From positions 64,001 through 128,000 of the forward strand of contig JBFMCP010000002.1 of the NCBI GenBank assembly GCA_040754455.1: a DNA stretch of 64,000 nucleotides. The letters run 5' to 3'. Position numbers and translations under genes: made by a program. Shown one piece after another: positions 15,239-51,182 of this stretch. The notes beneath the pieces are model-generated. The model saw only the letters and a list, made by a program, of their open reading frames with translations. It ran no database searches and was not told the origin of the DNA. The stretch's first letter is position 1. Each line of letters starts with the position of its first letter. This DNA is from Nitrospirota bacterium. Its GTDB lineage: Bacteria; Nitrospirota; Thermodesulfovibrionia; Thermodesulfovibrionales; Dissulfurispiraceae.

Positions 15239-15592
15239 GAGACCGAATATGAAGAACGCGAACTGCATCTTCAATGATCGGGGTGCCTGGTGCAAGAACG
15301 AGAAGGTAAAGCGGCGCTTGTTTGGCCTGGGGGCGAGAGTTTGTGCTGTGTTTAATGGGATGTCAGCACCAGCAAGAATATCCTCGACCAAAATCCCTTC
15401 CCCCAGTCCCGTCGCCGAGGGTGGAGCACCTGGGGATATAAGAGCGTAGAATGTTGGAGTGTTGGGGTATAATAATTCCATGAATTACGGCCTGGTCTAT
15501 AAGTCTAAGAGGAAGCGAAACAGTGGAGTTCTTTGGGCTCTGGCGTTGGCTGTGATAGTTATAGGGATTATTTCTCTCTGGGGTCTATGGAG

Positions 15593-15808
15593 ATGATGGT
15601 TAAATTGTTGCCATGCCCTTTTTGTGGCAACGAAGCGAAGCTGTACGAAGACTCGGAATATGCTAGCGAAGACCTCAGAAAATATTCTGTCTCCTGTACA
15701 GGATGCTCCTGCTCCTTGGGGGCCCTCGGCGATGACCATGACGACAATCCTGAATATTTGTTCTCTTCTAAGGAAGAGGCAATTAAGGCTTGGAATACTC
15801 GTGTATAA
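15593..15808 (+). CDS. Lar-family restriction alleviation protein
   Basis: LLPCPFCG...CTGC...EEAIKAWNTR. Confidence 0.8.
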   Translation: MMVKLLPCPFCGNEAKLYEDSEYASEDLRKYSVSCTGCSCSLGALGDDHDDNPEYLFSSKEEAIKAWNTRV

Positions 15809-15817
15809 ATTTAACCG

Positions 15818-15850
15818 CTGGCAAATCATGAAATAGAGAATTTGTATAAT
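15818..15850 (+). promoter_or_regulatory. Putative late promoter, copy 1
   Basis: CTGGCAAATCATGAAATA + 9 nt + TATAAT. Confidence 0.65.
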
Positions 15851-15915
15851 TTGTGAAGAGGTATTTGCGGAATGTCTTGACGGCGACCGCCAAAATCATC
15901 GACAAGGCTTCCGTC

Positions 15916-16052
15916 TTCGGTCAGTAGCAATTCACTCTTTTCCGGTGGGAACTGCTTAACCCGAAACCTGAAAGCTTGTTAGGATAGTGGTCAACTCTCT
16001 TTGGAGAGACCCTGGCCAACCCCGACTGGGCACTGGTTTCGGGTATTTTTTT
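15916..16052 (+). ncRNA. Structured cis-regulatory RNA leader, copy 1
   Basis: 10-bp stem ACCCGAAACC (15959-68) / GGTTTCGGGT (16035-44) then T run; inner stems; shares sequence blocks with 48191-48340. Confidence 0.6.
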
Positions 16053-16069
16053 GCCCGGAAAGGAGAACA

Positions 16070-16270
16070 ATGCACACAGACTGGGATATCAAGGACTGGA
16101 AGCGCCGTCTCGCCAAGCTGCTCAAAGAACACCCTGACATTGACGACCAGACCACCGGGCGTATCGAAATCAATCTTAACAGGGGCTCTATAACCAAGGC
16201 TTATAAGGTCGAAACCGAATCCCGTAACGGAGGGGCGAAAAGGATTATCACCATGACGGAATTGAAGTAA
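16070..16270 (+). CDS. Small leader-associated protein, copy 1 (66 aa; possibly DUF2292/YezD-like)
   Basis: AAGGAG RBS; DIKDWKRRLAKLL...PD...TGRIEINLNRGSIT; paralog at 48360. Confidence 0.7.
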   Translation: MHTDWDIKDWKRRLAKLLKEHPDIDDQTTGRIEINLNRGSITKAYKVETESRNGGAKRIITMTELK

Positions 16271-16314
16271 TCGCGGTCAGTTAGTAACTGCCGTCCTGGT
16301 GCGGCAGATCTATT

Positions 16315-16350
16315 AAACCCGGCAATGCGCTATGCGTTGGCCGGGTTTTT
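16315..16350 (+). terminator. Hairpin/terminator directly before the modification gene RBS
   Basis: AAACCCGGC...GCCGGGTTTTT. Confidence 0.6.
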
Positions 16351-16362
16351 CATTTGGAGATC

Positions 16363-17661
16363 ATGTCATTCATCGGATCGATTAACGACAGGCTTCGACA
16401 GTTTTTCTGGACCCACGCCGGCAGGCTCGACGGCCGGCGCTGCTATATCGGCTGCTCGGGCAATTTCACCATTGAGCAGATCATATCGCGCCGCTGCAGC
16501 AACGTAGAGATCTACAGCAATGACGTGTCTCTTTATTCAAGCGCCCTCGGCCATATGCTGGCCGGCAAGTCCTTTGACATGGAAATAACGAACCCCGAGC
16601 TCTCCTGGGCGAATGAATACATCCGGAGGGGCGCTGCAGAGGGAGTCGGCACGCTCCTGCTCTTGCTCGAAATGCTGAAGTACGAGAAGCGCAAGAGCGC
16701 CTTTGCCGAGCGCATGTGGCAGTCGTATCTGATCAATTTCGAGGGGCTGCTCGACAAGACCCTGCAGCGGATCCAGAAGGCGTCTGAGCATATTCGTATC
16801 AAAGAATACACCATGGTCGACGTGTTCGATTACTACCCACGCCCTGACGGCGTGAGCATCGGCTTCCTGCCGACCTATGTGGGCGGGTACGAGAAGCTTT
16901 TCGCCCGCCTCGAGGAGTCGGTGCAGTGGCAGAGCCCACGCTACGAGCTGCTTACCACAGAGCGCCGTGAGGCCAGCGTCCAGAAAATGCTTGACGGTGA
17001 TTACATCCTCTATGATGACCGTGAGCGCGATCTCCCCTGCATCGCCCGCGTGGATCTCTTTGGCCGCAAGACGGTCTACATTTACAGCAACCTCGATGTC
17101 CGCCAGGGCGTGTTCCGGAAAAAGATAAACGAGAAGGTCCCGCGCTACGAAATCCTCATGCCGGATGAAGAGATCGCTCATGATGCCGAGGTCAAGCTCC
17201 TGCAGGTGGACCTTCCGACGATCAACCACTACCGCAATATGTTCCTGAGCAAGAAGATACAGCCCGGCTCCGGGGATCCCTGCTTCCTTGCTTTTGCCGG
17301 CGACAAGGTGTTCGGCTTCCTGATCTTTCAGACCTATTCGAAAAAGGGCGGTCCGTCCGATGAGATCTATCTGCTATCAGATTTCGTAGTGCCGAGTACT
17401 CGGTATCGCCGACTTGCGAAACTGCTGCTTCTGGCCGTCAAGTGCAGAGAGGTCAAGCAGCTCCTCGATGAAAAGCAGATACGGGAATTCGGGAGCATCC
17501 TGACTACCGCTTTTACCGATAAACCGGTGAGCATGAAATACCGCGGCGTCTTCGAGCTCGCAAAGCGCGGCGAGGGCTTTCTGAATTACCGGGCCGAATT
17601 CGACAACACATCCCTGAAGGAGGTCATACAGCTATGGATGAAAAAATACGAGAAACAGTAG
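16363..17661 (+). CDS. Putative DNA-modification (anti-restriction) enzyme: divergent adenine MTase-like N-terminus + GNAT-like C-terminus
   Basis: YIGCSGNFT and YSNDVS SAM-binding-like motifs, FLPTY in the DPPY-like position; C-terminal GFLIF...YLLSDF...RRLAKLLL; GGAG RBS. Confidence 0.6.
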   Translation: MSFIGSINDRLRQFFWTHAGRLDGRRCYIGCSGNFTIEQIISRRCSNVEIYSNDVSLYSSALGHMLAGKSFDMEITNPELSWANEYIRRGAAEGVGTLLLLLEMLKYEKRKSAFAERMWQSYLINFEGLLDKTLQRIQKASEHIRIKEYTMVDVFDYYPRPDGVSIGFLPTYVGGYEKLFARLEESVQWQSPRYELLTTERREASVQKMLDGDYILYDDRERDLPCIARVDLFGRKTVYIYSNLDVRQGVFRKKINEKVPRYEILMPDEEIAHDAEVKLLQVDLPTINHYRNMFLSKKIQPGSGDPCFLAFAGDKVFGFLIFQTYSKKGGPSDEIYLLSDFVVPSTRYRRLAKLLLLAVKCREVKQLLDEKQIREFGSILTTAFTDKPVSMKYRGVFELAKRGEGFLNYRAEFDNTSLKEVIQLWMKKYEKQ

Positions 17662-18786: not shown

Positions 18787-19035
18787 ATGCGATATGTGAC
18801 GGTGGGATTGACGGCAGAGCAAGCGCATTTTGTATCAGACATGCAGAGGCATTATGAGCGGATGGCGGGAGAGGCGATTCCGCTGCACCGCGCAATAGAG
18901 CGCATTATTGAATGCGCCATGCTGGAAAGAAAGGAGGTTAATGGAGAGGAAGAAAATTGGAAGGGCACGGCGGCCACCGTGCCCCACGTAAGCACCCCTA
19001 ACCCAAACACGAGAAAGGAGCTAACACTATGGTAG
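18787..19035 (+). CDS. Small protein, possibly ribbon-helix-helix regulator
   Basis: N-terminal strand YVTVGL then two helices; AAGGA RBS; TTGCCC-17 nt-TAGGAT upstream (18715-18743). Confidence 0.45.
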   Translation: MRYVTVGLTAEQAHFVSDMQRHYERMAGEAIPLHRAIERIIECAMLERKEVNGEEENWKGTAATVPHVSTPNPNTRKELTLW

Positions 19036-21383
19036 CAACGGCAGCAGTCGAAGTCAACGCAAAGAGGATCGCATCATTGAGGAAAGTAGCAGACGGAATG
19101 ACAAAGCAGATCGAGGAGAAGTTGAACTCGGCCACCAGCAAGCAGCGCCCCACCCGGCGGCGCGCAAAGATAGCCGACAGTCTGGAGCAGGAAGGCCGGA
19201 CCCTGCAAAAGGTCCAGCACGCGCTCAATGCGATCGCTGACGGCCTTGAGAGCGGCACGCTCCCCGAGAGCCTTGCGAAGCTCTCTAACCGGGTGCAAGT
19301 GGACGACCTCATCAGATTGAGCCGTCCATCTGATCGCCTGGAGGCCCTCGGCATCGATTTCGAGCGGGCCAAGGCCGATATCATGGAGATCATTAAAGAC
19401 GCTGTCCCGGTCGTCAGCCTGCAGGAAGCGAAGATCCGGAAGATGGAGCGCGACCTGATCGGCACCAAGATCCCCGGTTATTTCCCTACTCCCCGTGAGA
19501 TAGTTGAAGAGATGCTCCAGTCGGCGGATATCGCGCCCGGCATGAAGGTCCTGGAGCCGAGCGCCGGCAAGGGCAACATCGCGGATGTCATCAGAGAGCT
19601 TTATCCTGAGGTGGAGCTGTCGGTTGTCGAGCGCAATTGGACACTTTGCGAGATACTGAAAGAAAAAGAGCACAATCTTGTCGGTTATGATTTCTTGCTG
19701 CACGAGGGCAGGTATGACCGCATCATCATGAACCCGCCGTTCGAGAACGGGCAGGATATGGACCACGTGCGCCATGCCTATTCGCACCTGAATCCGGGCG
19801 GCATTGTAGTATCCATCGTATGCGAGGGCGCCTTTTGTCGGACCGATAAGAAGGCCTGCGATTTTAAAGACTGGATGACCGAAATCGGCGGTACATCCTT
19901 CAGTCTGCCGAGCGGATCCTTCAGCATGGGAGAGCGGTCCACGGGAGTCAATACAAGAATCGTCGTCCTCTACAAGGAAGAGTCGGCAGCGGAAGAAGCT
20001 GCGACCGAGACGGAAGAAGACATGGTGGCTTTTGGAGAAGGGTCTGAACAGCCGGCGGCTGAGGTCGTTCAAACTCCCGATGCGGAGCCGGAGCTAGCTA
20101 TCTGCCGGACATGCAAAGGCAGGGGAGAGATCGAGAATATCAAATGCGCGGACTGCAAAGGCACCGGATGGGCTGTCGTAGAAAAGGTCATTCACGAGGA
20201 CTGCAATGGACATGGCTGTGATGCCTGCCATGACGGTTGGATCGCAAGACAGGTGAATGCCGAGCCCAACGGCGTTCTTTCGCCGGACCAGACGCAGAAA
20301 GACCTGAACCTGAAGCATCCAGCAGGAGACCGAAAGCGCGGCACGCTGACCCTTATTCGCAATGAGTTCGAGGAATGTCTAAAGGCCGCTCTCGACATCG
20401 CCGAGCGGAGAAACACCATGCCGATTCTCTCGCATATCCACATCAAGGCTGAGGAGGGCGCCTGCCGCATCGAGGCCACCGATATTGAAAACTCATGGAG
20501 CAAGGTGATTGTCGCCAATCCGGTCTACGGCGCCGTCGATATGTGCGTCCCGCTCCATCTTCTCGCCAAAGAGGTCAGCGCGCTCCACGCAGACATCAAG
20601 ACCGTAGAGCTGTCGTTCAAGGGCAATACGGTAAAAGTCAACGGCAGGTGCGATATCTTCACTCTTCGCGGTGATGAATTCCCGGCCCTCAAAATTATCG
20701 AGGGCACCGAAGTTGCGATGAAGGGACTTCCGGCGAAGATCAAAAGAGTACTCGTAGCAGCAGGCGAGAGTGATACCCGGTATGTGCTCAACGGTGTCTA
20801 TATTGATTTGCAGAAAGGGCGCATCGTGGCGACCGACGGCCACCGGCTGCACATTGATGATATCGAGAAATCAGAGATGCCGAGTGTCATTCTTTCACGC
20901 AAGACAGCCGGGCTGATCGCCAAGCATGGCGCTGATACGCTCGTTTTCGGTGATGGGCATGTATCCTGCGCACTTGCCGGAGGTGTTCTGGTATCGAGGC
21001 TCCACGAAGGCACCTATCCGAACTACGAGAATGTAATCCCCAAAGAGCTCCCGATCAAGGCGACCTTCAGCGGGGCGGAGATGCTCAAGGTCCTTGAGGG
21101 AGCGGTCCCTATAGCGGCATCGAAGAGCAACGCGGTCAAGCTCTCGTTCAACGGGCAGATCGACGTGCATTCCACGAATCCCGATATTGGGCAATATCAC
21201 TGGTACGTGCCCTGCGAAAAAACAGGGGACGATATCTCTATAGCGATCAATGCACAGTATCTTATCGACTCCATCCGGTCATACACGACCAAGGAGAATG
21301 ATACTGTTATAATGGAGATCAACGAGCAGCTGACCCCGGTGCTCATCAACAGCAGGGCTGTCGTAATGCCCATGAGGTTATAG
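19029..21383 (+). CDS. Amino-DNA methyltransferase fused to DnaJ-type Zn finger and DNA polymerase III beta clamp (DnaN-like)
   Basis: VLEPSAGKG and IIMNPPF; CRTCKGRG/CADCKGTG; RNTMPILSH..EATDIE, TRYVLNGVY..VATDGHRL, SRLHEGTYPNYENVIP, terminal VVMPMRL. Confidence 0.9.
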   Translation: MVATAAVEVNAKRIASLRKVADGMTKQIEEKLNSATSKQRPTRRRAKIADSLEQEGRTLQKVQHALNAIADGLESGTLPESLAKLSNRVQVDDLIRLSRPSDRLEALGIDFERAKADIMEIIKDAVPVVSLQEAKIRKMERDLIGTKIPGYFPTPREIVEEMLQSADIAPGMKVLEPSAGKGNIADVIRELYPEVELSVVERNWTLCEILKEKEHNLVGYDFLLHEGRYDRIIMNPPFENGQDMDHVRHAYSHLNPGGIVVSIVCEGAFCRTDKKACDFKDWMTEIGGTSFSLPSGSFSMGERSTGVNTRIVVLYKEESAAEEAATETEEDMVAFGEGSEQPAAEVVQTPDAEPELAICRTCKGRGEIENIKCADCKGTGWAVVEKVIHEDCNGHGCDACHDGWIARQVNAEPNGVLSPDQTQKDLNLKHPAGDRKRGTLTLIRNEFEECLKAALDIAERRNTMPILSHIHIKAEEGACRIEATDIENSWSKVIVANPVYGAVDMCVPLHLLAKEVSALHADIKTVELSFKGNTVKVNGRCDIFTLRGDEFPALKIIEGTEVAMKGLPAKIKRVLVAAGESDTRYVLNGVYIDLQKGRIVATDGHRLHIDDIEKSEMPSVILSRKTAGLIAKHGADTLVFGDGHVSCALAGGVLVSRLHEGTYPNYENVIPKELPIKATFSGAEMLKVLEGAVPIAASKSNAVKLSFNGQIDVHSTNPDIGQYHWYVPCEKTGDDISIAINAQYLIDSIRSYTTKENDTVIMEINEQLTPVLINSRAVVMPMRL

Positions 21384-46410: not shown

Positions 46411-47496
46411 ATGGGACAGAGCATTATATGGAAAGATGATCCGGCATATTCGACGAATGCCGCTAACTTTCACAAGAGCATGGACATCAGGCCGGGCCTG
46501 TTCAACAATTACCTGCAGGTTAATGCTACAAAGACCGGCATCATCGTCAAGGCCGATACCATCATCCCCCTGAAAAGCGGGTCCACGTGGAAGGCGTACC
46601 TGTTCACCTCTGACAGCGAGGTGACGACGCTCGACACCGGCGCGCTTACCCTGGGGACGCATTACTACGTCTATCTCTGCGATAACGGTACGGACAACGG
46701 GCTGCTGCTCCTCTCTGCGAACTCCACCGCGCCGCAGGGCTACACCGCATCGGACTCCAGGAAGATCGGCGGCTTCCACTACGGCAGAGTGCGCAATAGC
46801 ATCACCGTGGCCGACGTCACCAGCGGCGCCGTGGTCCCCAACTCGGTGTGGGACCTCTACAACCGTCCCAAGTGCTCTCCGGAGGGCATGGTGAAGATCC
46901 ACGAGAACCTCTGGTGCGATATCTACCTCGCCTCGGTCAACGAGGCGATCACCTTTGCTGCGGGCAATGGCTCCCCCACTAAGGCAGGCTCCTGCAAGAG
47001 CGCCTACAATGCAGCGCCTCTGACGGGCACAGAGGGCCTCAGCGGCTACAACTTCCTCGAGCTGGCCAGAAGGTCCGGCAAGAGACTTTTGACCCTTGCA
47101 GAATGGCTGCAGGCAGCGCACGGGAGTCCACAAGGAAATAACGGGGATAATAACAACGCCTGGTCAGCTACCACCAATTCAGCAAGGACAAATACGGGCT
47201 CTGTGGCCAATGCAATCAGCCTTTTAAATGTGGTAGACTGTGTGGGAAATGTCTTGGAATGGCTTGATGAATTTTCGAATCGACAGGATACCACGAGCTG
47301 GAACTGGTACGACGTTATGACAGGCATGAGTGTGGGTCAGCTTTATCTGGCGAACAACACGGGATTGATACAGTATTTAGCCGGTGGCCATTGGAGCCCT
47401 GGCGTCTACGCTGGCTCGCGGTGCGTTAATGCCAATAGCTCTCCGTGGAGTGTCTCTCCGGATATCGGCTCCCGGCTGGCCTGTGACGCTCTGTAA
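46411..47496 (+). CDS. DGR target: Mtd-like receptor-binding protein with C-terminal CLec (FGE-type) fold
   Basis: IGGFHYG, SVWDL, WCDIYL, GKRLLTLAEW, DCVGNVLEW, GSRLACD; VR at the 3' end. Confidence 0.92.
   Translation: MGQSIIWKDDPAYSTNAANFHKSMDIRPGLFNNYLQVNATKTGIIVKADTIIPLKSGSTWKAYLFTSDSEVTTLDTGALTLGTHYYVYLCDNGTDNGLLLLSANSTAPQGYTASDSRKIGGFHYGRVRNSITVADVTSGAVVPNSVWDLYNRPKCSPEGMVKIHENLWCDIYLASVNEAITFAAGNGSPTKAGSCKSAYNAAPLTGTEGLSGYNFLELARRSGKRLLTLAEWLQAAHGSPQGNNGDNNNAWSATTNSARTNTGSVANAISLLNVVDCVGNVLEWLDEFSNRQDTTSWNWYDVMTGMSVGQLYLANNTGLIQYLAGGHWSPGVYAGSRCVNANSSPWSVSPDIGSRLACDAL
47380..47486 (+). repeat. DGR variable repeat (VR)
   Basis: 107 nt aligned ungapped with TR; 13 differences, all at TR adenines. 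Confidence 0.97.
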
Positions 47497-47590: not shown

Positions 47591-47923
47591 ATGAACGATC
47601 TCGTGATTTACCAGAAGGTGTACGATTTCACGCTGTACCTTTTCCCGATTGTAGAGAAGTTTCCGAAGCATGAGAAGTTTGTCCTCTGTACGCACGTCAA
47701 ATCATGCGTGCTCGATATTGCCCGGCTGATCATCAGGGCCAATAAGAGCCGGACGAAAAAGGCGATCCTCTACGACATCGATGTGAGGATCGAGGAGCTG
47801 AAGTTTCTGCTCCGGCTTGCTCATGACAGGAAATACCTCTCCAACAAAAGCTACGAGCACAGCAGCAAACTGCTGCTCGAAATAGGAAGGCTGTTAGGAG
47901 GATGGATCAAAAGTGTGGGTTAA
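47591..47923 (+). CDS. avd: DGR accessory variability determinant (four-helix bundle)
   Basis: LVIYQKVYD..FPKHEKF..LRLAHD..EIGRLLGGWIK; between VR and TR. Confidence 0.93.
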   Translation: MNDLVIYQKVYDFTLYLFPIVEKFPKHEKFVLCTHVKSCVLDIARLIIRANKSRTKKAILYDIDVRIEELKFLLRLAHDRKYLSNKSYEHSSKLLLEIGRLLGGWIKSVG

Positions 47924-47930
47924 GGGCGAT

Positions 47931-48037
47931 ACCGGTGGCAATTGGAGCAATGGCGTAAACGCTGGCTCGCGGTGCGTTAATGCCAATAACTATCCGTGGA
48001 ATGTCAATACGAATATCGGCTCCCGGCTGGCCTGTGA
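47931..48037 (+). repeat. DGR template repeat (TR)
   Basis: Adenine-retaining copy of VR with nine AAY codons in the VR frame. Confidence 0.97.
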
Positions 48038-48190
48038 GTGTATAGGGCTTACAGAGATGATGTCTCTCTACGGAGCATCACCAGTGACATATACAGTCAG
48101 GCCCTTGATCCCTGCCGCAAGGCAAAAATTGGAGAGGCTCTGTGCAGTGAGTACGGACAGCAGTCCTTAAAATTGTGCAGGCCGCATAAT

Positions 48191-48340
48191 TTCGGTCGGT
48201 TAATAGCTCCGCTTCAGCCGGAGAACTGTTAAACCCGAAATCTCAGAATCGTAAAAACGGTCGGTTAGTTGGCAACTCCTCCGGGAGAGCTGCCAAGCCC
48301 ATCAAAAACCGTTTTACGGTTTTCAGATTTCGGGTTTTTT
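48191..48340 (+). ncRNA. Structured cis-regulatory RNA leader, copy 2 (inside DGR spacer)
   Basis: 13-bp stem AAACCCGAAATCT (48231-43) / AGATTTCGGGTTT (48325-37) + T run; inner stems; shares blocks with 15916-16052. Confidence 0.65.
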
Positions 48341-48359
48341 GGTTTCAGGAGGCTGACCG

Positions 48360-48545
48360 ATGGGCGGGAAGAAAGACGACAAGGAATGGAAGCGAGTATT
48401 GGTGAAGTGCCTGGAGGATCTGGGCAAGGAGGGGATTGTCCCTCCGGATGTGAAGAATCTGACCGGCAGGCTTGTCCTCGATCTTAATATGAGCCAGGGC
48501 GGGGTAACGGATCTGGATGTCTCGGTGAAGAGGAAATTTAAATAA
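48360..48545 (+). CDS. Small leader-associated protein, copy 2 (61 aa)
   Basis: AGGAGG RBS; DDKEWKRVLVKCL..PPD..TGRLVLDLN..GGVT; stop 1 nt before RT start. Confidence 0.75.
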   Translation: MGGKKDDKEWKRVLVKCLEDLGKEGIVPPDVKNLTGRLVLDLNMSQGGVTDLDVSVKRKFK

Positions 48546-48546
48546 G

Positions 48547-49581
48547 ATGCCTAAGACCTATAACGGCCTGTTTGAGAAGATCTGCGATTTCGAGAACATC
48601 TATGGCGCATACCTCAAGGCGAGAAAATGCAGGCGGTACCGGGAGGAAATACTCAGGTTCAGCCGCAATGTGGAAGAGGAACTGTTGACGCTCCAGGATG
48701 AGCTGGTGCTGGGCACCTACAGGACCGGCCAGTACAAGCGGTTCTTTGTGTTCGAGCCAAAGAAACGAGAGATATTCGCGCTTCCCTTCAGGGACAGAGT
48801 GGTGCACCATGCAATCTGTACGATTATCGAGCCGCTCTTTGAGCGGAAGTTTATCTTCGACTCCTACGGGTGCAGGACCGGCAAAGGGCAGCATGCCGGG
48901 TCGTCCCGGCTGGTCTCCTTCCTGAGACGGGCGCAGAGAGTATGGGATGAGGTCTATTGCCTGAAGGCCGACGTGTCGAAATTCTTCCCCTCGGTGGACC
49001 ATGAGGCATTGAAGGGCATCATACGGCGGACCATACGCTGCAAAAGGACCCTGCAGCTTATCGATTGCATCATCGACAGCGCGCCTGAAGAGAAGGGGAT
49101 ACCGATCGGGAATCTTACCAGCCAGCTCTTTGCGAATATCTACCTGAATGAGCTTGATTACTTCGTAAAGAACGAGCTGCAGGCGAAGTTCTATCTGCGC
49201 TATATGGATGATTTTGTGATCCTCCATAACGATAAGAAAGTGCTGCATCAGTGGATGGCGCAGGTCGGCGAATTCCTGAGAGAAAGGCTTAAGCTTGAGC
49301 TCCATGCAAAGACCTCTGTCTTCCCCATCTCCAGGGGCGTCGACTTCCTCGGCTATCGCACCTGGCCGACGCACAAGCTCCTCAGGAAGCGCAATATCAT
49401 CGGCATGAAACGGAAGCTCAAAAAGCTTTCTGCATTATACAGGGACGGCAGGATTACCCTTCAGGTCGTGAGGCCGGTCATAGCCTCATGGCTCGGCCAC
49501 GCGAAGCACGCGAGCAGCTATAACGTCGTGAGGAGGATGCTCGGGAACGCTGTGTTTAGTAGGAGTTCATTATCGGGATGA
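48547..49581 (+). CDS. DGR reverse transcriptase
   Basis: PFRDRVVHHA, GIPIGNLTSQLFANIYL, YLRYMDDF, VDFLGY; 344 aa, no maturase/endonuclease tail. Confidence 0.96.
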   Translation: MPKTYNGLFEKICDFENIYGAYLKARKCRRYREEILRFSRNVEEELLTLQDELVLGTYRTGQYKRFFVFEPKKREIFALPFRDRVVHHAICTIIEPLFERKFIFDSYGCRTGKGQHAGSSRLVSFLRRAQRVWDEVYCLKADVSKFFPSVDHEALKGIIRRTIRCKRTLQLIDCIIDSAPEEKGIPIGNLTSQLFANIYLNELDYFVKNELQAKFYLRYMDDFVILHNDKKVLHQWMAQVGEFLRERLKLELHAKTSVFPISRGVDFLGYRTWPTHKLLRKRNIIGMKRKLKKLSALYRDGRITLQVVRPVIASWLGHAKHASSYNVVRRMLGNAVFSRSSLSG

Positions 49582-49635: not shown

Positions 49636-50142
49636 ATGAAAAAGCCGCCGATAATAAGAAAAGGGACAATCAATAACTCCGCCTGTCGGAGAGCTATTAG
49701 AGACCCTATGAGAAGAAAGAGAAAAATACTTATCGTTGATGATGAAGAGTTTGTACGTGCCGCTGTTCGCAGAATCCTTGAATTTAATAATTATTCGATT
49801 ATCGAGGCGCTCTCCGGGCCTGAGGCTTTAAAAAAATTGTCTGAAAAACCCGACTTGATCATTGCTGATTACCATTTAGGCGGCATGTCTGGGTTATGCC
49901 TCTTGATTGAGATCCGAAAGGCCAGTGATATCCCTATTATCATGTTGACCGCGGACTCCTCACAGAAAATAGCGGTGCAGTGGTTTCGTGAGGGAGGAAA
50001 TGATTTTATCCATAAACCTTTTGACAGCGATTTTCTTTTAGTCGTCGTTGAGCGCACACTGCGTTATGCTGCTGCCATGAGGGCAATGATGTCACAGCCC
50101 ACGAAAACCCGTAAGCCTCGCTCGAAGAGATCCTCGAAATAG
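49636..50142 (+). CDS. Stand-alone response regulator receiver protein (start may be 49708)
   Basis: ILIVDDE, DLIIADY, IPIIMLTA, FIHKPF. Confidence 0.85.
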   Translation: MKKPPIIRKGTINNSACRRAIRDPMRRKRKILIVDDEEFVRAAVRRILEFNNYSIIEALSGPEALKKLSEKPDLIIADYHLGGMSGLCLLIEIRKASDIPIIMLTADSSQKIAVQWFREGGNDFIHKPFDSDFLLVVVERTLRYAAAMRAMMSQPTKTRKPRSKRSSK

Positions 50143-50592
50143 GGGCATGATCGCTTTAAGTACGTCCGCTTTTGACGATGACGGGGCTATGGATGAGGTG
50201 CAAGTTTCTTTTATTGGTTCAGTTGTTTGCAAATAGGGATCGACCTGTGAATAAACATTCAGGGCAATGATGATATGAGCAAGCAAGGGGATGCCTACCA
50301 ACTCACCCACCTCGATCAGCCTCTTTGTTATCTCTATATCTTTCTTGCTTGGCGAGGGGTCTCCGCTTGGATGGTTATGAACTAAGATGACAGCATAGGC
50401 GCTATTTCTGATTGCCTTCCGGAAGACCTCTCGGGGATGGATCAATGAATTGGTGAGCGTCCCCCTCGATATGAGTTCTTTCTCAATAAGATCCTTTTTT
50501 GCATTCAGATGCAGCAGATACACATTCTCCCGATCCTCCAGTTCGAGAAATTGCATTGTTTGATAGACATCGGCAGCGTTCCTGATCTTCAT
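50092..50592 (-). CDS. RadC-like JAB domain protein
   Basis: HPREVF..ILVHNHPSGDPSPSKKD. Confidence 0.88.
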   Translation of the reverse strand: MKIRNAADVYQTMQFLELEDRENVYLLHLNAKKDLIEKELISRGTLTNSLIHPREVFRKAIRNSAYAVILVHNHPSGDPSPSKKDIEITKRLIEVGELVGIPLLAHIIIALNVYSQVDPYLQTTEPIKETCTSSIAPSSSKADVLKAIMPLFRGSLRARLTGFRGL

Positions 50593-50937: not shown

Positions 50938-51013
50938 TGGTGGTCCCAACGGGAGTCGAACCCGTGTTTTAGCCTTGAGAGGGCCACGTCCTAGGCCACT
51001 AGACGATGGGACC
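50938..51013 (-). tRNA. tRNA-Glu (CTC), probable prophage attachment site
   Basis: GGTCCCA...TGGCC-CT-CTC-AA-GGCTA...GGTTCGACTCC...TGGGACCACCA. Confidence 0.95.
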
Positions 51014-51108
51014 AATTAAGATAGTGTTTAGCTATCAGCATTCAGCAATCAACAACAAACTTAAAACAATCCGGATAAAGCGGATTGCTAAAAGCTCACA
51101 GCCGAAAA

Positions 51109-51182
51109 TGGCTGGGGAGAGAGGATTCGAACCCCTATAAGCAGATCCAGAGTCTGCCGTCCTGCCATTGGACGACTCCCCA
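51109..51182 (-). tRNA. tRNA-Gln (CTG)
   Basis: TGGGGAG...GCAGA-CT-CTG-GA-TCTGC...GGTTCGAATCC...CTCCCCAGCCA. Confidence 0.95.

Follow-up and report, generated by a model that had tools for sequence, protein, structure and literature searches.

The BglG, SacY and LicT antiterminators carry a small dimeric RNA-binding module and act on leaders whose default state is termination, and the ANTAR proteins AmiR, NasR and EutV work with two tandem hairpins placed before a terminator, the distal one overlapping it. Lambda N is a small phage protein that acts, through a hairpin site (nut) in the leader RNA, on downstream terminators, its own gene lying behind the site, and the Com protein of phage Mu, of about 60 amino acids (aa), is encoded directly upstream of the DNA-modification gene mom and acts on its mRNA leader. 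To our knowledge, the control of diversity-generating retroelement (DGR) activity is largely unknown. BPP-1-type DGR cassettes have been described as target gene, avd, template repeat (TR), spacer and reverse transcriptase (RT), with nothing in between. Here, we analysed a BPP-1-type DGR in a stretch of 64,000 nucleotides (nt) from a Nitrospirota bacterium (GenBank assembly GCA_040754455.1, contig JBFMCP010000002.1, positions 64,001 to 128,000, forward strand; hereafter the window), and found that a structured leader and a small protein gene form a conserved insertion between its spacer and the RT gene. Like cassettes precede Mom-like and Dam methylase genes, and the cassette is probably a switch for enzymes that alter DNA.

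The DGR was recognized by the Pfam domains RVT_1, bAvd, the second domain of Mtd and an FGE-sulfatase domain, together with a pair of TR and variable repeat (VR), which was judged by its 106 nt at 89% identity. The order of its parts is Mtd-like target, Avd, TR and RT, as follows.

46411 to 47496: Mtd-like target gene (Pfam/PHROGs), with the VR at 47381 to 47486
47591 to 47923: Avd (bAvd, Pfam/PHROGs)
47932 to 48037, plus strand: TR, a 106-nt direct repeat 89% identical to the VR
48038 to 48183, plus strand: DGR spacer proper, outside the module, with a sub-threshold match to Rfam RT-14
48547 to 49581, plus strand: DGR RT (RVT_1, E 5.7e-21; phrog_1423, E 2.8e-147)

A first-pass annotation of the window had reported that 509 nt separate the end of the TR from the RT start codon (48547), and that a 61-aa open reading frame (ORF) stops 1 nt before this ATG, and the coordinates confirmed both statements. 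It had also spoken of the whole interval as holding a structured leader and the ORF, of which a part stood. The first approximately 150 nt (48038-48183) are an ordinary DGR spacer, matching RT-14 at 22.8 bits, and the homologous stretch in the related locus L138 reached 39.8 bits (gathering score, 48.1). The additional leader and ORF are real and make up a module of about 360 nt (48191-48546), inserted, as had been proposed, into an otherwise BPP-1-type cassette. This module contains two tandem hairpin units of approximately 47 nt, a long terminator-like stem with a U-run, a ribosome-binding site and the ORF. In the following, the bit scores are those of the covariance model R1 described below.

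48191 to 48240, plus strand: hairpin unit A1 (55.8 bits; covariation; fold), whose 3' flank ACCCGAAA is the terminator 5' arm
48260 to 48304, plus strand: hairpin unit A2 (54.8 bits; fold), in the loop of the long terminator stem
48231 to 48340, plus strand: long terminator-like stem A, 48231-48243 pairing with 48325-48337, T-run at 48335-48340
48347 to 48352, plus strand: Shine-Dalgarno sequence AGGAGG of the small ORF, as read from the sequence
48360 to 48545, plus strand: ORF A, 61 aa, a predicted homodimer; TAA at 48543-48545, then G 48546 and the RT ATG

The diverged copy that the annotation had placed at 15916-16270 is indeed a paralogous module (module B). Its ORF B is 37% identical to ORF A over 46 residues (BLASTP E 9e-6, single comparison), its leader carries two units as in A, and it is followed by a third unit and a terminator (16272-16350) that had been missed.

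15843 to 15850, plus strand: TGTATAAT, extended -10-like promoter candidate of module B, found by eye; a similar TGnTATAAT stands before D-type modules
15916 to 15966, plus strand: hairpin unit B1 (39.7 bits)
15979 to 16026, plus strand: hairpin unit B2 (36.9 bits)
15957 to 16052, plus strand: long terminator-like stem of leader B (minimum free energy (MFE) -37.1 kcal/mol, z -3.5), T-run at 16046-16052
16070 to 16270, plus strand: ORF B, 66 aa, paralog of ORF A, with orthologues in L136 (70%) and L157
16272 to 16324, plus strand: hairpin unit C, the third of module B (45.2 bits), conserved in L136 and L157
16314 to 16350, plus strand: short terminator after unit C, a plain 14-bp stem (MFE -20.9 kcal/mol, z -4.0), T-run at 16346-16350
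16354 to 17661, plus strand: Mom-like gene (DAM-like-phage1 and GNAT-phage-like, Pfam E 2.8e-56 and 3.5e-41)

A promoter scan that requires a -35 element listed no promoter for module B.

We then analysed the hairpin unit. The RNA blocks that the annotation had described as shared between the two leaders are real, and they constitute one unit of approximately 47 nt, present twice per leader in A and B. From 5' to 3', it consists of CGG, a 3-nt bulge (YAG or CGG), a 6-bp stem, an internal loop of A versus ANC, and a CUCC/GGAG apical stem with a variable loop, followed by the flank RCCCGAA; the loops measure 4-10 nt on these 47-nt bulged hairpins. The composite pattern GGTCRGT-N15-45-TWAACCCG occurs three times in the window versus 0.01 expected, and none of 100 shuffles reached three. 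When 20 units from the window and seven related loci were aligned (53 columns), 93% of the cells were paired, and 10 of the 14 pairs had changed on both sides, while none of 500 shuffles reached any of five measures and partners slid by 1-3 columns were paired in 27-53%. The covariance model R1, built from these 20 units, detected five full units in the window at 37-56 bits, with everything else at or below 20.1 bits. Units absent from the training set were recovered as well: a third one ahead of the RT, at 47.2 bits in L138 and 27.6 bits in L139, and three each in L152, L156 and L157. Adding the 11 full units from these five loci and the partial window match at 49672-49698 gave 32 rows from 11 sources, an alignment that was fitted to R1 and hence leans towards the model, with 92% paired and compensatory changes in 11 of the 14 pairs. 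The stems thus vary and yet keep pairing, as had been claimed, and the cell counts overstate the independent events because the H1-versus-H2 differences are old and inherited by many rows. Since G-U pairs are frequent and all of the units lie on the coding strand, the signal is in the RNA rather than the DNA, and a DNA-level operator was ruled out on the same grounds. Furthermore, identity among the leaders is 84-94%, versus 54-66% at ORF third positions, indicating that the leader is under selection. Compared with shuffles, leader A folds with a z of -6.6, and leader B more weakly, with a z of -2.9.

The annotation had further proposed that the 5' end of the unit competes for bases of the closing stem. 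The folds and the R1 alignment agree with this: the 5' CGG and the terminator 3' arm compete for the same CCC(GA), since the closing helix GGN/N'CC of the unit (UUCGG/CCGAA in A1 and B1) shares its CCC with the terminator base. Another possible closing helix, UCGG/CCGA, was rejected, as it is paired less consistently (83%, versus 95% for GGN/N'CC).

Weinberg et al. 2017 (PMC5737381) describe the RT motifs as RNAs that occur in the vicinity of RT genes; among them, RT-10 corresponds to the spacer of BPP-1. Rfam at the gathering threshold gave only three tRNAs in the whole window. With E values up to 10 in the regions 47900-48600 and 15800-16400, there was no C4 or c4-a1b1 match, and the matches to RT-14 and RT-17 (14.7 bits) fell in the spacer, upstream of the units. 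Among the seven related loci (E up to 0.1), RT-14 was found in the L138 spacer only. A scan of viral contigs with the pattern CGGTCRGT-N15-45-TWAACCCG returned 119 stretches, none of which has CGGGT and a T-run within 160 nt, and these were set aside as chance matches; the pattern is also too strict, as the close relatives L130 and L131 fail it.

The units run into terminator-like stems. In the leaders, the 5' arm is the unit flank (A/G)CCCGAAA and the 3' arm is UUUCGGG(U/C), followed by 5-7 U. The fold of 48231-48343, which encloses unit A2, has an MFE of -50.5 kcal/mol (z -6.7), and the stems end 0-2 nt before 5-7 T, so that a stable stem and a U-run, as in an intrinsic terminator, are predicted together. 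In seven distinct A-type leaders, the stem base covaries: the pair next to CCCG is A-U in two and G-C in three, and compensatory pairs occur at two further stem-base positions. In L139 and L157, the terminator is built on the flank of the second unit instead. The GGAGG of the ribosome-binding site is present in six of the seven, and L139 has AAAGG at the aligned place. In the L132 group, another terminator-like hairpin (GACCCGCUGAUC...GAUCAGCGGGUUGAUUUU; L132:4166-4205) lies between the small ORF and the RT, and its 5' arm resembles the unit flank, with no unit detected there.

We next turned to the small protein. ORF A is coding and under purifying selection, as judged from ratios of nonsynonymous to synonymous substitution (dN/dS) of 0.02-0.10 in the A-type orthologue pairs, five of six being computable; the ratio is 0.09 for the D-type pair, and could not be computed for the sixth A-type pair and the B pair, in which dS is saturated. 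A profile of the two proteins found eight proteins at E <=0.001 among 1.84 billion cluster representatives, all but one of them 50-73 aa long. No Pfam or PHROG family was matched by the small proteins (Pfam E up to 10 in 11 family members), a PDB sequence profile search gave nothing below E 0.26, and the best tblastn E value of both proteins against cultured phages was 0.6. When two copies of ORF A were modelled together, the score was 0.53, versus 0.08 for the best of three controls. The mark was attained by 20 of the 30 proteins whose solved structure is a pair of one chain, and by one of the 23 whose solved structure is a single chain. The runs agreed in at least 92% of the contacts, the predicted local distance difference test (pLDDT) of the partner was at least 73, and in the predicted dimer the strand 35-45 runs antiparallel to its twin and the helices (residues 13-21) are packed together. 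The modelling therefore supports a homodimer.

A resemblance to DUF2292 (PF10055, YezD), for which we know of no function, was also considered. The proteins are similar in size and share a helix followed by a G-x-hydrophobic strand-turn-strand pattern, and the small protein resembles an Atlas cluster (score 0.77), 30% of whose members carry PF10055. However, hhalign against 17 members from the phylum gave a probability of 2.3% (E 0.021), and the link was rejected; hmmscan found no PF10055 match in the small proteins, and a six-frame search with PF10055 gave no match in the own genome, versus 17 of 201 genomes of the phylum. Matches confined to the C-terminal motif (L133-L135 and L144-L146) were likewise set aside, and R1 found no unit in L133, L134, L135 and L146. 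In L133 (3944-4108), for example, a 54-aa protein shares only the C-terminal TG-x-strand-LNMSQGGIT motif, with no units nearby, and its gene lies directly 3' of a phage head-morphogenesis-like gene.

To what extent the module is kept was seen in virus and metagenome collections, in which 10 contigs carry an A-type module (protein 57-87% identical to ORF A), yielding seven distinct leaders with the window included. Units and ORF occur together in 10 of 10 A-type contigs, three of three B-type loci and two of two D-type loci, so that the homologous leader-ORF pairs sought as a check on the annotation do exist, with covariation. Two tandem units are present in all 12 A-, B- and D-type leaders examined. 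The RT, 62-86% identical to that of the window, lies downstream in all 10 A-type contigs, and Avd lies upstream in nine, the remaining contig (L142) starting inside the TR. Among 13 more distant RT relatives (28-56% identical), neither the unit nor the small protein was found in any, the sole R1 match being one of 11.8 bits on the other strand, and the distance from Avd to RT in one of them, L183, is approximately 320 nt versus 624 nt in the window. Because none of the 13 carries it, the module is a lineage-specific insertion of about 300-360 nt.

The gene behind the RT varies. A Dam (D12) gene follows in four of five distinct relatives with enough downstream sequence (L131, the L132 group, L137 and L139, not L138; L130 ends inside the RT). 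In the window, a response-regulator gene rather than a methylase gene comes after the RT, together with one weak candidate unit.

49663 to 49707, plus strand: possible further unit after the RT (R1 local match at 49672-49698, 20.1 bits, E 0.012; unit-like fold, z -1.5)

The last base of this hairpin (49707) directly precedes the ATG at 49708, with which the REC domain of the response-regulator ORF begins. Together with L156, in which a D-type module also precedes a response-regulator gene, this placement gives a hint that the cassette may carry the response regulator as cargo; the two response regulators are 32% identical, as is ordinary for REC domains. The ORF (49636-50142) is single-domain, and a start at 49636 would place the hairpin inside the coding region.

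We further examined the modules that stand before DNA-modification genes. The B-type loci are those of the window, a contig of a Nitrospirales metagenome-assembled genome (L136) and genome G276 (L157), and all three share one order: two units and a terminator, the ORF, a third unit and a terminator, and the Mom-like gene, for whose product no PDB relative was found. Module B lies in an anti-restriction and DNA-modification neighbourhood, because genes of the Lar, Mom-like, ParB-like and methyltransferase kinds are found there. The gene directly upstream (15533-15808) encodes a Lar-like restriction-alleviation/Ogr-Delta zinc-finger protein (Pfam E 4.3e-13). Judging from its translation, a 784-aa ORF at 19029-21383 reads like an N6-adenine methyltransferase (NPPF motif), and its C-terminal part, ending ...VVMPMRL, is reminiscent of a sliding clamp.

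The D-type module was found in the window's own genome (contig C1:115207-116400; L152:1424-2612). It opens with a TGnTATAAT box, 8 nt ahead of unit 1, and continues with two units and a terminator, a 52-aa ORF, and a further unit and terminator, after which comes a D12-class Dam methylase; a same-genus genome (G202, L156) has a D-type module too. The D-type Dam is 72% identical to the L132 Dam, and L132 also has a 46% relative of the tail-fibre-like gene that lies upstream of module D. These gene contexts suggest that the cassette may once have been part of a tail-fibre-proximal methylase operon and came to be flanked by the DGR parts. The L152 Dam frame has an in-frame TAG after ...LIPSH, where the L132 relative has Gln, which may reflect a pseudogene, a variant of the assembly or read-through.

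The first-pass annotation had suggested that receptor hypermutation may be co-regulated with DNA modification. This suggestion is only partly supported. In its favour, cassettes precede the Mom-like gene in all three B-type loci and the Dam gene, and Dam follows the RT in the relatives noted above; on the other hand, ORF A and ORF B are only 37% identical, their units differ, and the window RT is followed by a response regulator. In the own 3.27-Mb genome, all units of at least 19.8 bits lie in the three modules, except the 20.1-bit partial match after the RT, and thus there is no sign of a wider regulon. Other genomes of the phylum yielded six weaker protein relatives (E 6e-7 to 4e-4), with no R1 unit at E <=1. 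In four of these loci (L159, L160, L161 and L162; genomes G251, G194, G350 and G260), the gene of a 56-71-aa distant relative (E 6e-7 to 1e-4) is followed by a shorter hairpin, AACUWWAGCCCG, a terminator, and secreted- or lipoprotein-like genes; one such hairpin scores 10.4 bits. With these short versions, the family may have a wider branch. An upstream ...CCCTTAAAATACCC... element is common to L158 and L162.

We consider a protein-dependent read-through (antitermination) switch to be the leading account of the cassette, with somewhat less than an even chance of being correct. The cassette would be self-contained, with at least one unit running into an intrinsic terminator, followed by the gene of a dimeric protein of about 60 aa, and in fuller versions by one more unit before the cargo gene. 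We infer that the small protein binds the units, that the stems terminate transcription and that binding favours read-through. That the protein would act on its own leader and on the pre-cargo unit is argued from the conserved loop and bulge nucleotides on covarying stems, the strict linkage to a small dimeric protein, the overlap of the unit flank with the terminator base, and the order of units, terminator, ORF, an optional unit and terminator, and enzyme. The CCC(GA) flank could pair either with the 5' CGG of its own unit, as the closing helix, or with the terminator 3' arm. Intrinsic termination needs the bottom base pairs of the stem next to the U-run, and a protein clamped on the unit and its flank would block just these pairs, allowing the polymerase to read through. 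Without the protein, the far more stable terminator would win, in keeping with the predicted energies (-50.5, -37.1 and -20.9 kcal/mol for the terminators, versus -12.6 to -17.4 kcal/mol for the isolated units). In the DGR, most avd-TR-spacer transcripts would then stop at 48340, and rare read-through would yield protein A and the RT, protein A in turn raising read-through, so that a threshold switch for the RT would result. With positive feedback, a pair of consecutive terminators would keep the switch tightly off and make it turn on sharply, as would suit DNA-altering enzymes.

Several observations weigh against this antitermination account. The closing helix has just 2-5 bp, its third pair is unpaired in nine of 31 units, and its GG/CC pairs are invariant and hence unable to covary. 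A simple consensus terminator scan lists none of the stems, because its loop limit is 8 nt and bulges are excluded, and the terminator label therefore rests on the folds and the U-runs. The units before the RT in L138 and L139 have no terminator after them, nor does the possible unit at 49663-49707, and terminator blocking is therefore not the only role of the unit. The AlphaFold2 monomer of ORF A is poor (mean pLDDT 56.6, predicted template modelling score 0.37, residues 37-61 below 50), and Pfam shows no recognizable RNA-binding domain in the small protein. Finally, it is not obvious why an RT gene should be under positive feedback.

A rival account is autorepression, in which the protein on its units favours termination or blocks translation, so that RT, Mom-like or Dam enzymes are kept at a low, steady level, and to which we assign a modest, minority probability. 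Such enzymes plausibly need low levels, and for Mu mom this requirement is established. In L138 and L139, 20-30 nt lie between the terminator-less unit and the RT start, an ATG directly follows the possible unit at 49663-49707, and in the A-type leaders the 5' UCGG can pair with the CCGA just before the ORF AUG, which would hide the start region. This pairing is complete in five of the seven leaders, with one compensatory case (L132), yet it is broken in L131, L138 and L139 and absent from the B-type leaders; moreover, as the unit flank overlaps the terminator 5' arm, binding would more naturally hinder the terminator than favour it. Terminator-less units would also be accounted for by processive antitermination of the N/nut kind, in which the unit recruits the protein to RNA polymerase and later terminators are ignored wherever they are placed; here the order of promoter, site, small gene and terminator resembles that of lambda pL-nutL-N. 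We regard this as improbable, given that most units sit directly on a terminator, that covariation links the terminator arm to the base adjoining the CCC flank, and that the protein is a predicted folded dimer rather than an arginine-rich disordered peptide; nor was a boxA-like element noted on reading the leaders, no search for one having been made.

Two further accounts assign the protein or the leader another function. The ORF product might be a DGR accessory factor that works with the RT, Avd or TR RNA in retrohoming, the leader being a passive terminator that sets the ratio of template RNA to RT mRNA. The strict conservation of the module between Avd-TR and RT in all 10 contigs of one DGR lineage fits this, as does a terminator after the spacer, which would define the TR-spacer RNA. 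However, paralogous cassettes stand before Mom-like and Dam genes with no RT nearby, the 13 more distant DGRs work without the module, and the unit sequence is conserved far beyond the needs of a terminator, all of which leaves this account about as improbable as the N/nut-like one. Slightly less probable still, the terminated two-unit leader could itself be a stable small RNA that, for instance, serves as a decoy and draws the protein away from the single pre-cargo unit: two units with a strong terminator do look like a stand-alone small RNA gene, and the D-type TATAAT box lies 8 nt before unit 1, whereas the ORF has no visible promoter of its own and so would depend on terminator read-through, and the A-type modules of the window branch have no third unit before the RT.

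Compared with the known systems, the cassette resembles BglG, SacY and LicT with their RAT sites in that a hairpin with internal loops overlaps, by its 3' side, the terminator 5' arm, an overlap computed here. The likeness does not go beyond function: neither a CAT nor a PRD domain was found (Pfam E up to 10, 11 members), sugar-sensing domains are lacking, the unit sequence is unrelated, and the protein is encoded inside the regulated leader. The two tandem units of all 12 leaders recall the ANTAR systems, from which the cassette differs in having no ANTAR domain (Pfam) and in its 47-nt bulged hairpins, which are not short hexaloop hairpins. As with Com and mom, the three B-type modules precede a Mom-like gene; however, Com is a four-Cys zinc finger, whereas ORF A has one Cys and ORF B none, and here terminators follow the units rather than a translation-inhibiting stem alone. 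In contrast to lambda N, there is no arginine-rich motif, the protein is a predicted folded dimer, and the units are mostly directly on a terminator. Like the DGR spacer RNAs RT-10 and RT-14, the module lies between TR and RT, but the spacer proper (48038-48183) is separate and RT-14-like, and the units match no Rfam family.

The module is conserved with its cassette, as DGR accessory genes are. The accessory genes described are avd, HRDC, MSL, CH1 and PAG1-4, with sizes of 112-283 aa for MSL, 160-169 aa for CH1 and about 115-210 aa for the PAGs (Wu et al. 2018, PMC5758913, and its Supplementary Data 5, in the parts available to us). Within these parts, ORF A matches none of the eight classes: avd and HRDC were set apart by Pfam, PAG1-4 are visibly unrelated on reading, and MSL and CH1 differ by published size alone. 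Taken with the Rfam searches for C4, c4-a1b1 and RT motifs, this agrees with the annotation, which had not recognized the module as a described DGR component. No description of the cassette turned up in searches of the openly accessible literature on DGR accessory genes, spacers and terminators, on DGRs with small ORFs and antitermination, and on DUF2292/YezD. On sequence grounds, it thus appears to be a protein-controlled terminator leader of new RNA and protein families, new as a DGR component.

One whole DGR lineage therefore has a dedicated leader and small gene before its RT, and like cassettes stand before Mom-like and Dam genes, so that the control of retrohoming becomes open to concrete tests. 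The short list of protein-controlled terminator leaders would gain a covarying RNA motif and a small-protein family, both of them new, and the cassette, at about 360 nt, is compact and might be tried out as a portable switch. A further suggestion is that a regulatory unit already present in a phage methylase operon can become the core around which the parts of a DGR assemble. Going further, the 47-nt unit and the dimer of about 60 aa might constitute an unrecognized riboregulatory system, a self-encoded antiterminator threshold switch before DGR RT, Mom-like and Dam genes, which one DGR lineage captured from a methylase operon to license hypermutation, and of which the short versions of the L159-L162 type would mark a wider family; in this full form the proposal is speculative and rather unlikely to hold throughout.

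All or part of the stretch is contained in seven DNA sequencing runs from four studies, with no RNA run listed; four of the seven may be its source. Beyond the DGR region, an ORF on the minus strand (50092-50592) has an HNHPSG motif and looks RadC/JAB-like by eye, and two tRNA genes follow on the same strand (50941-51182); this region is probably the prophage end or an attachment region.

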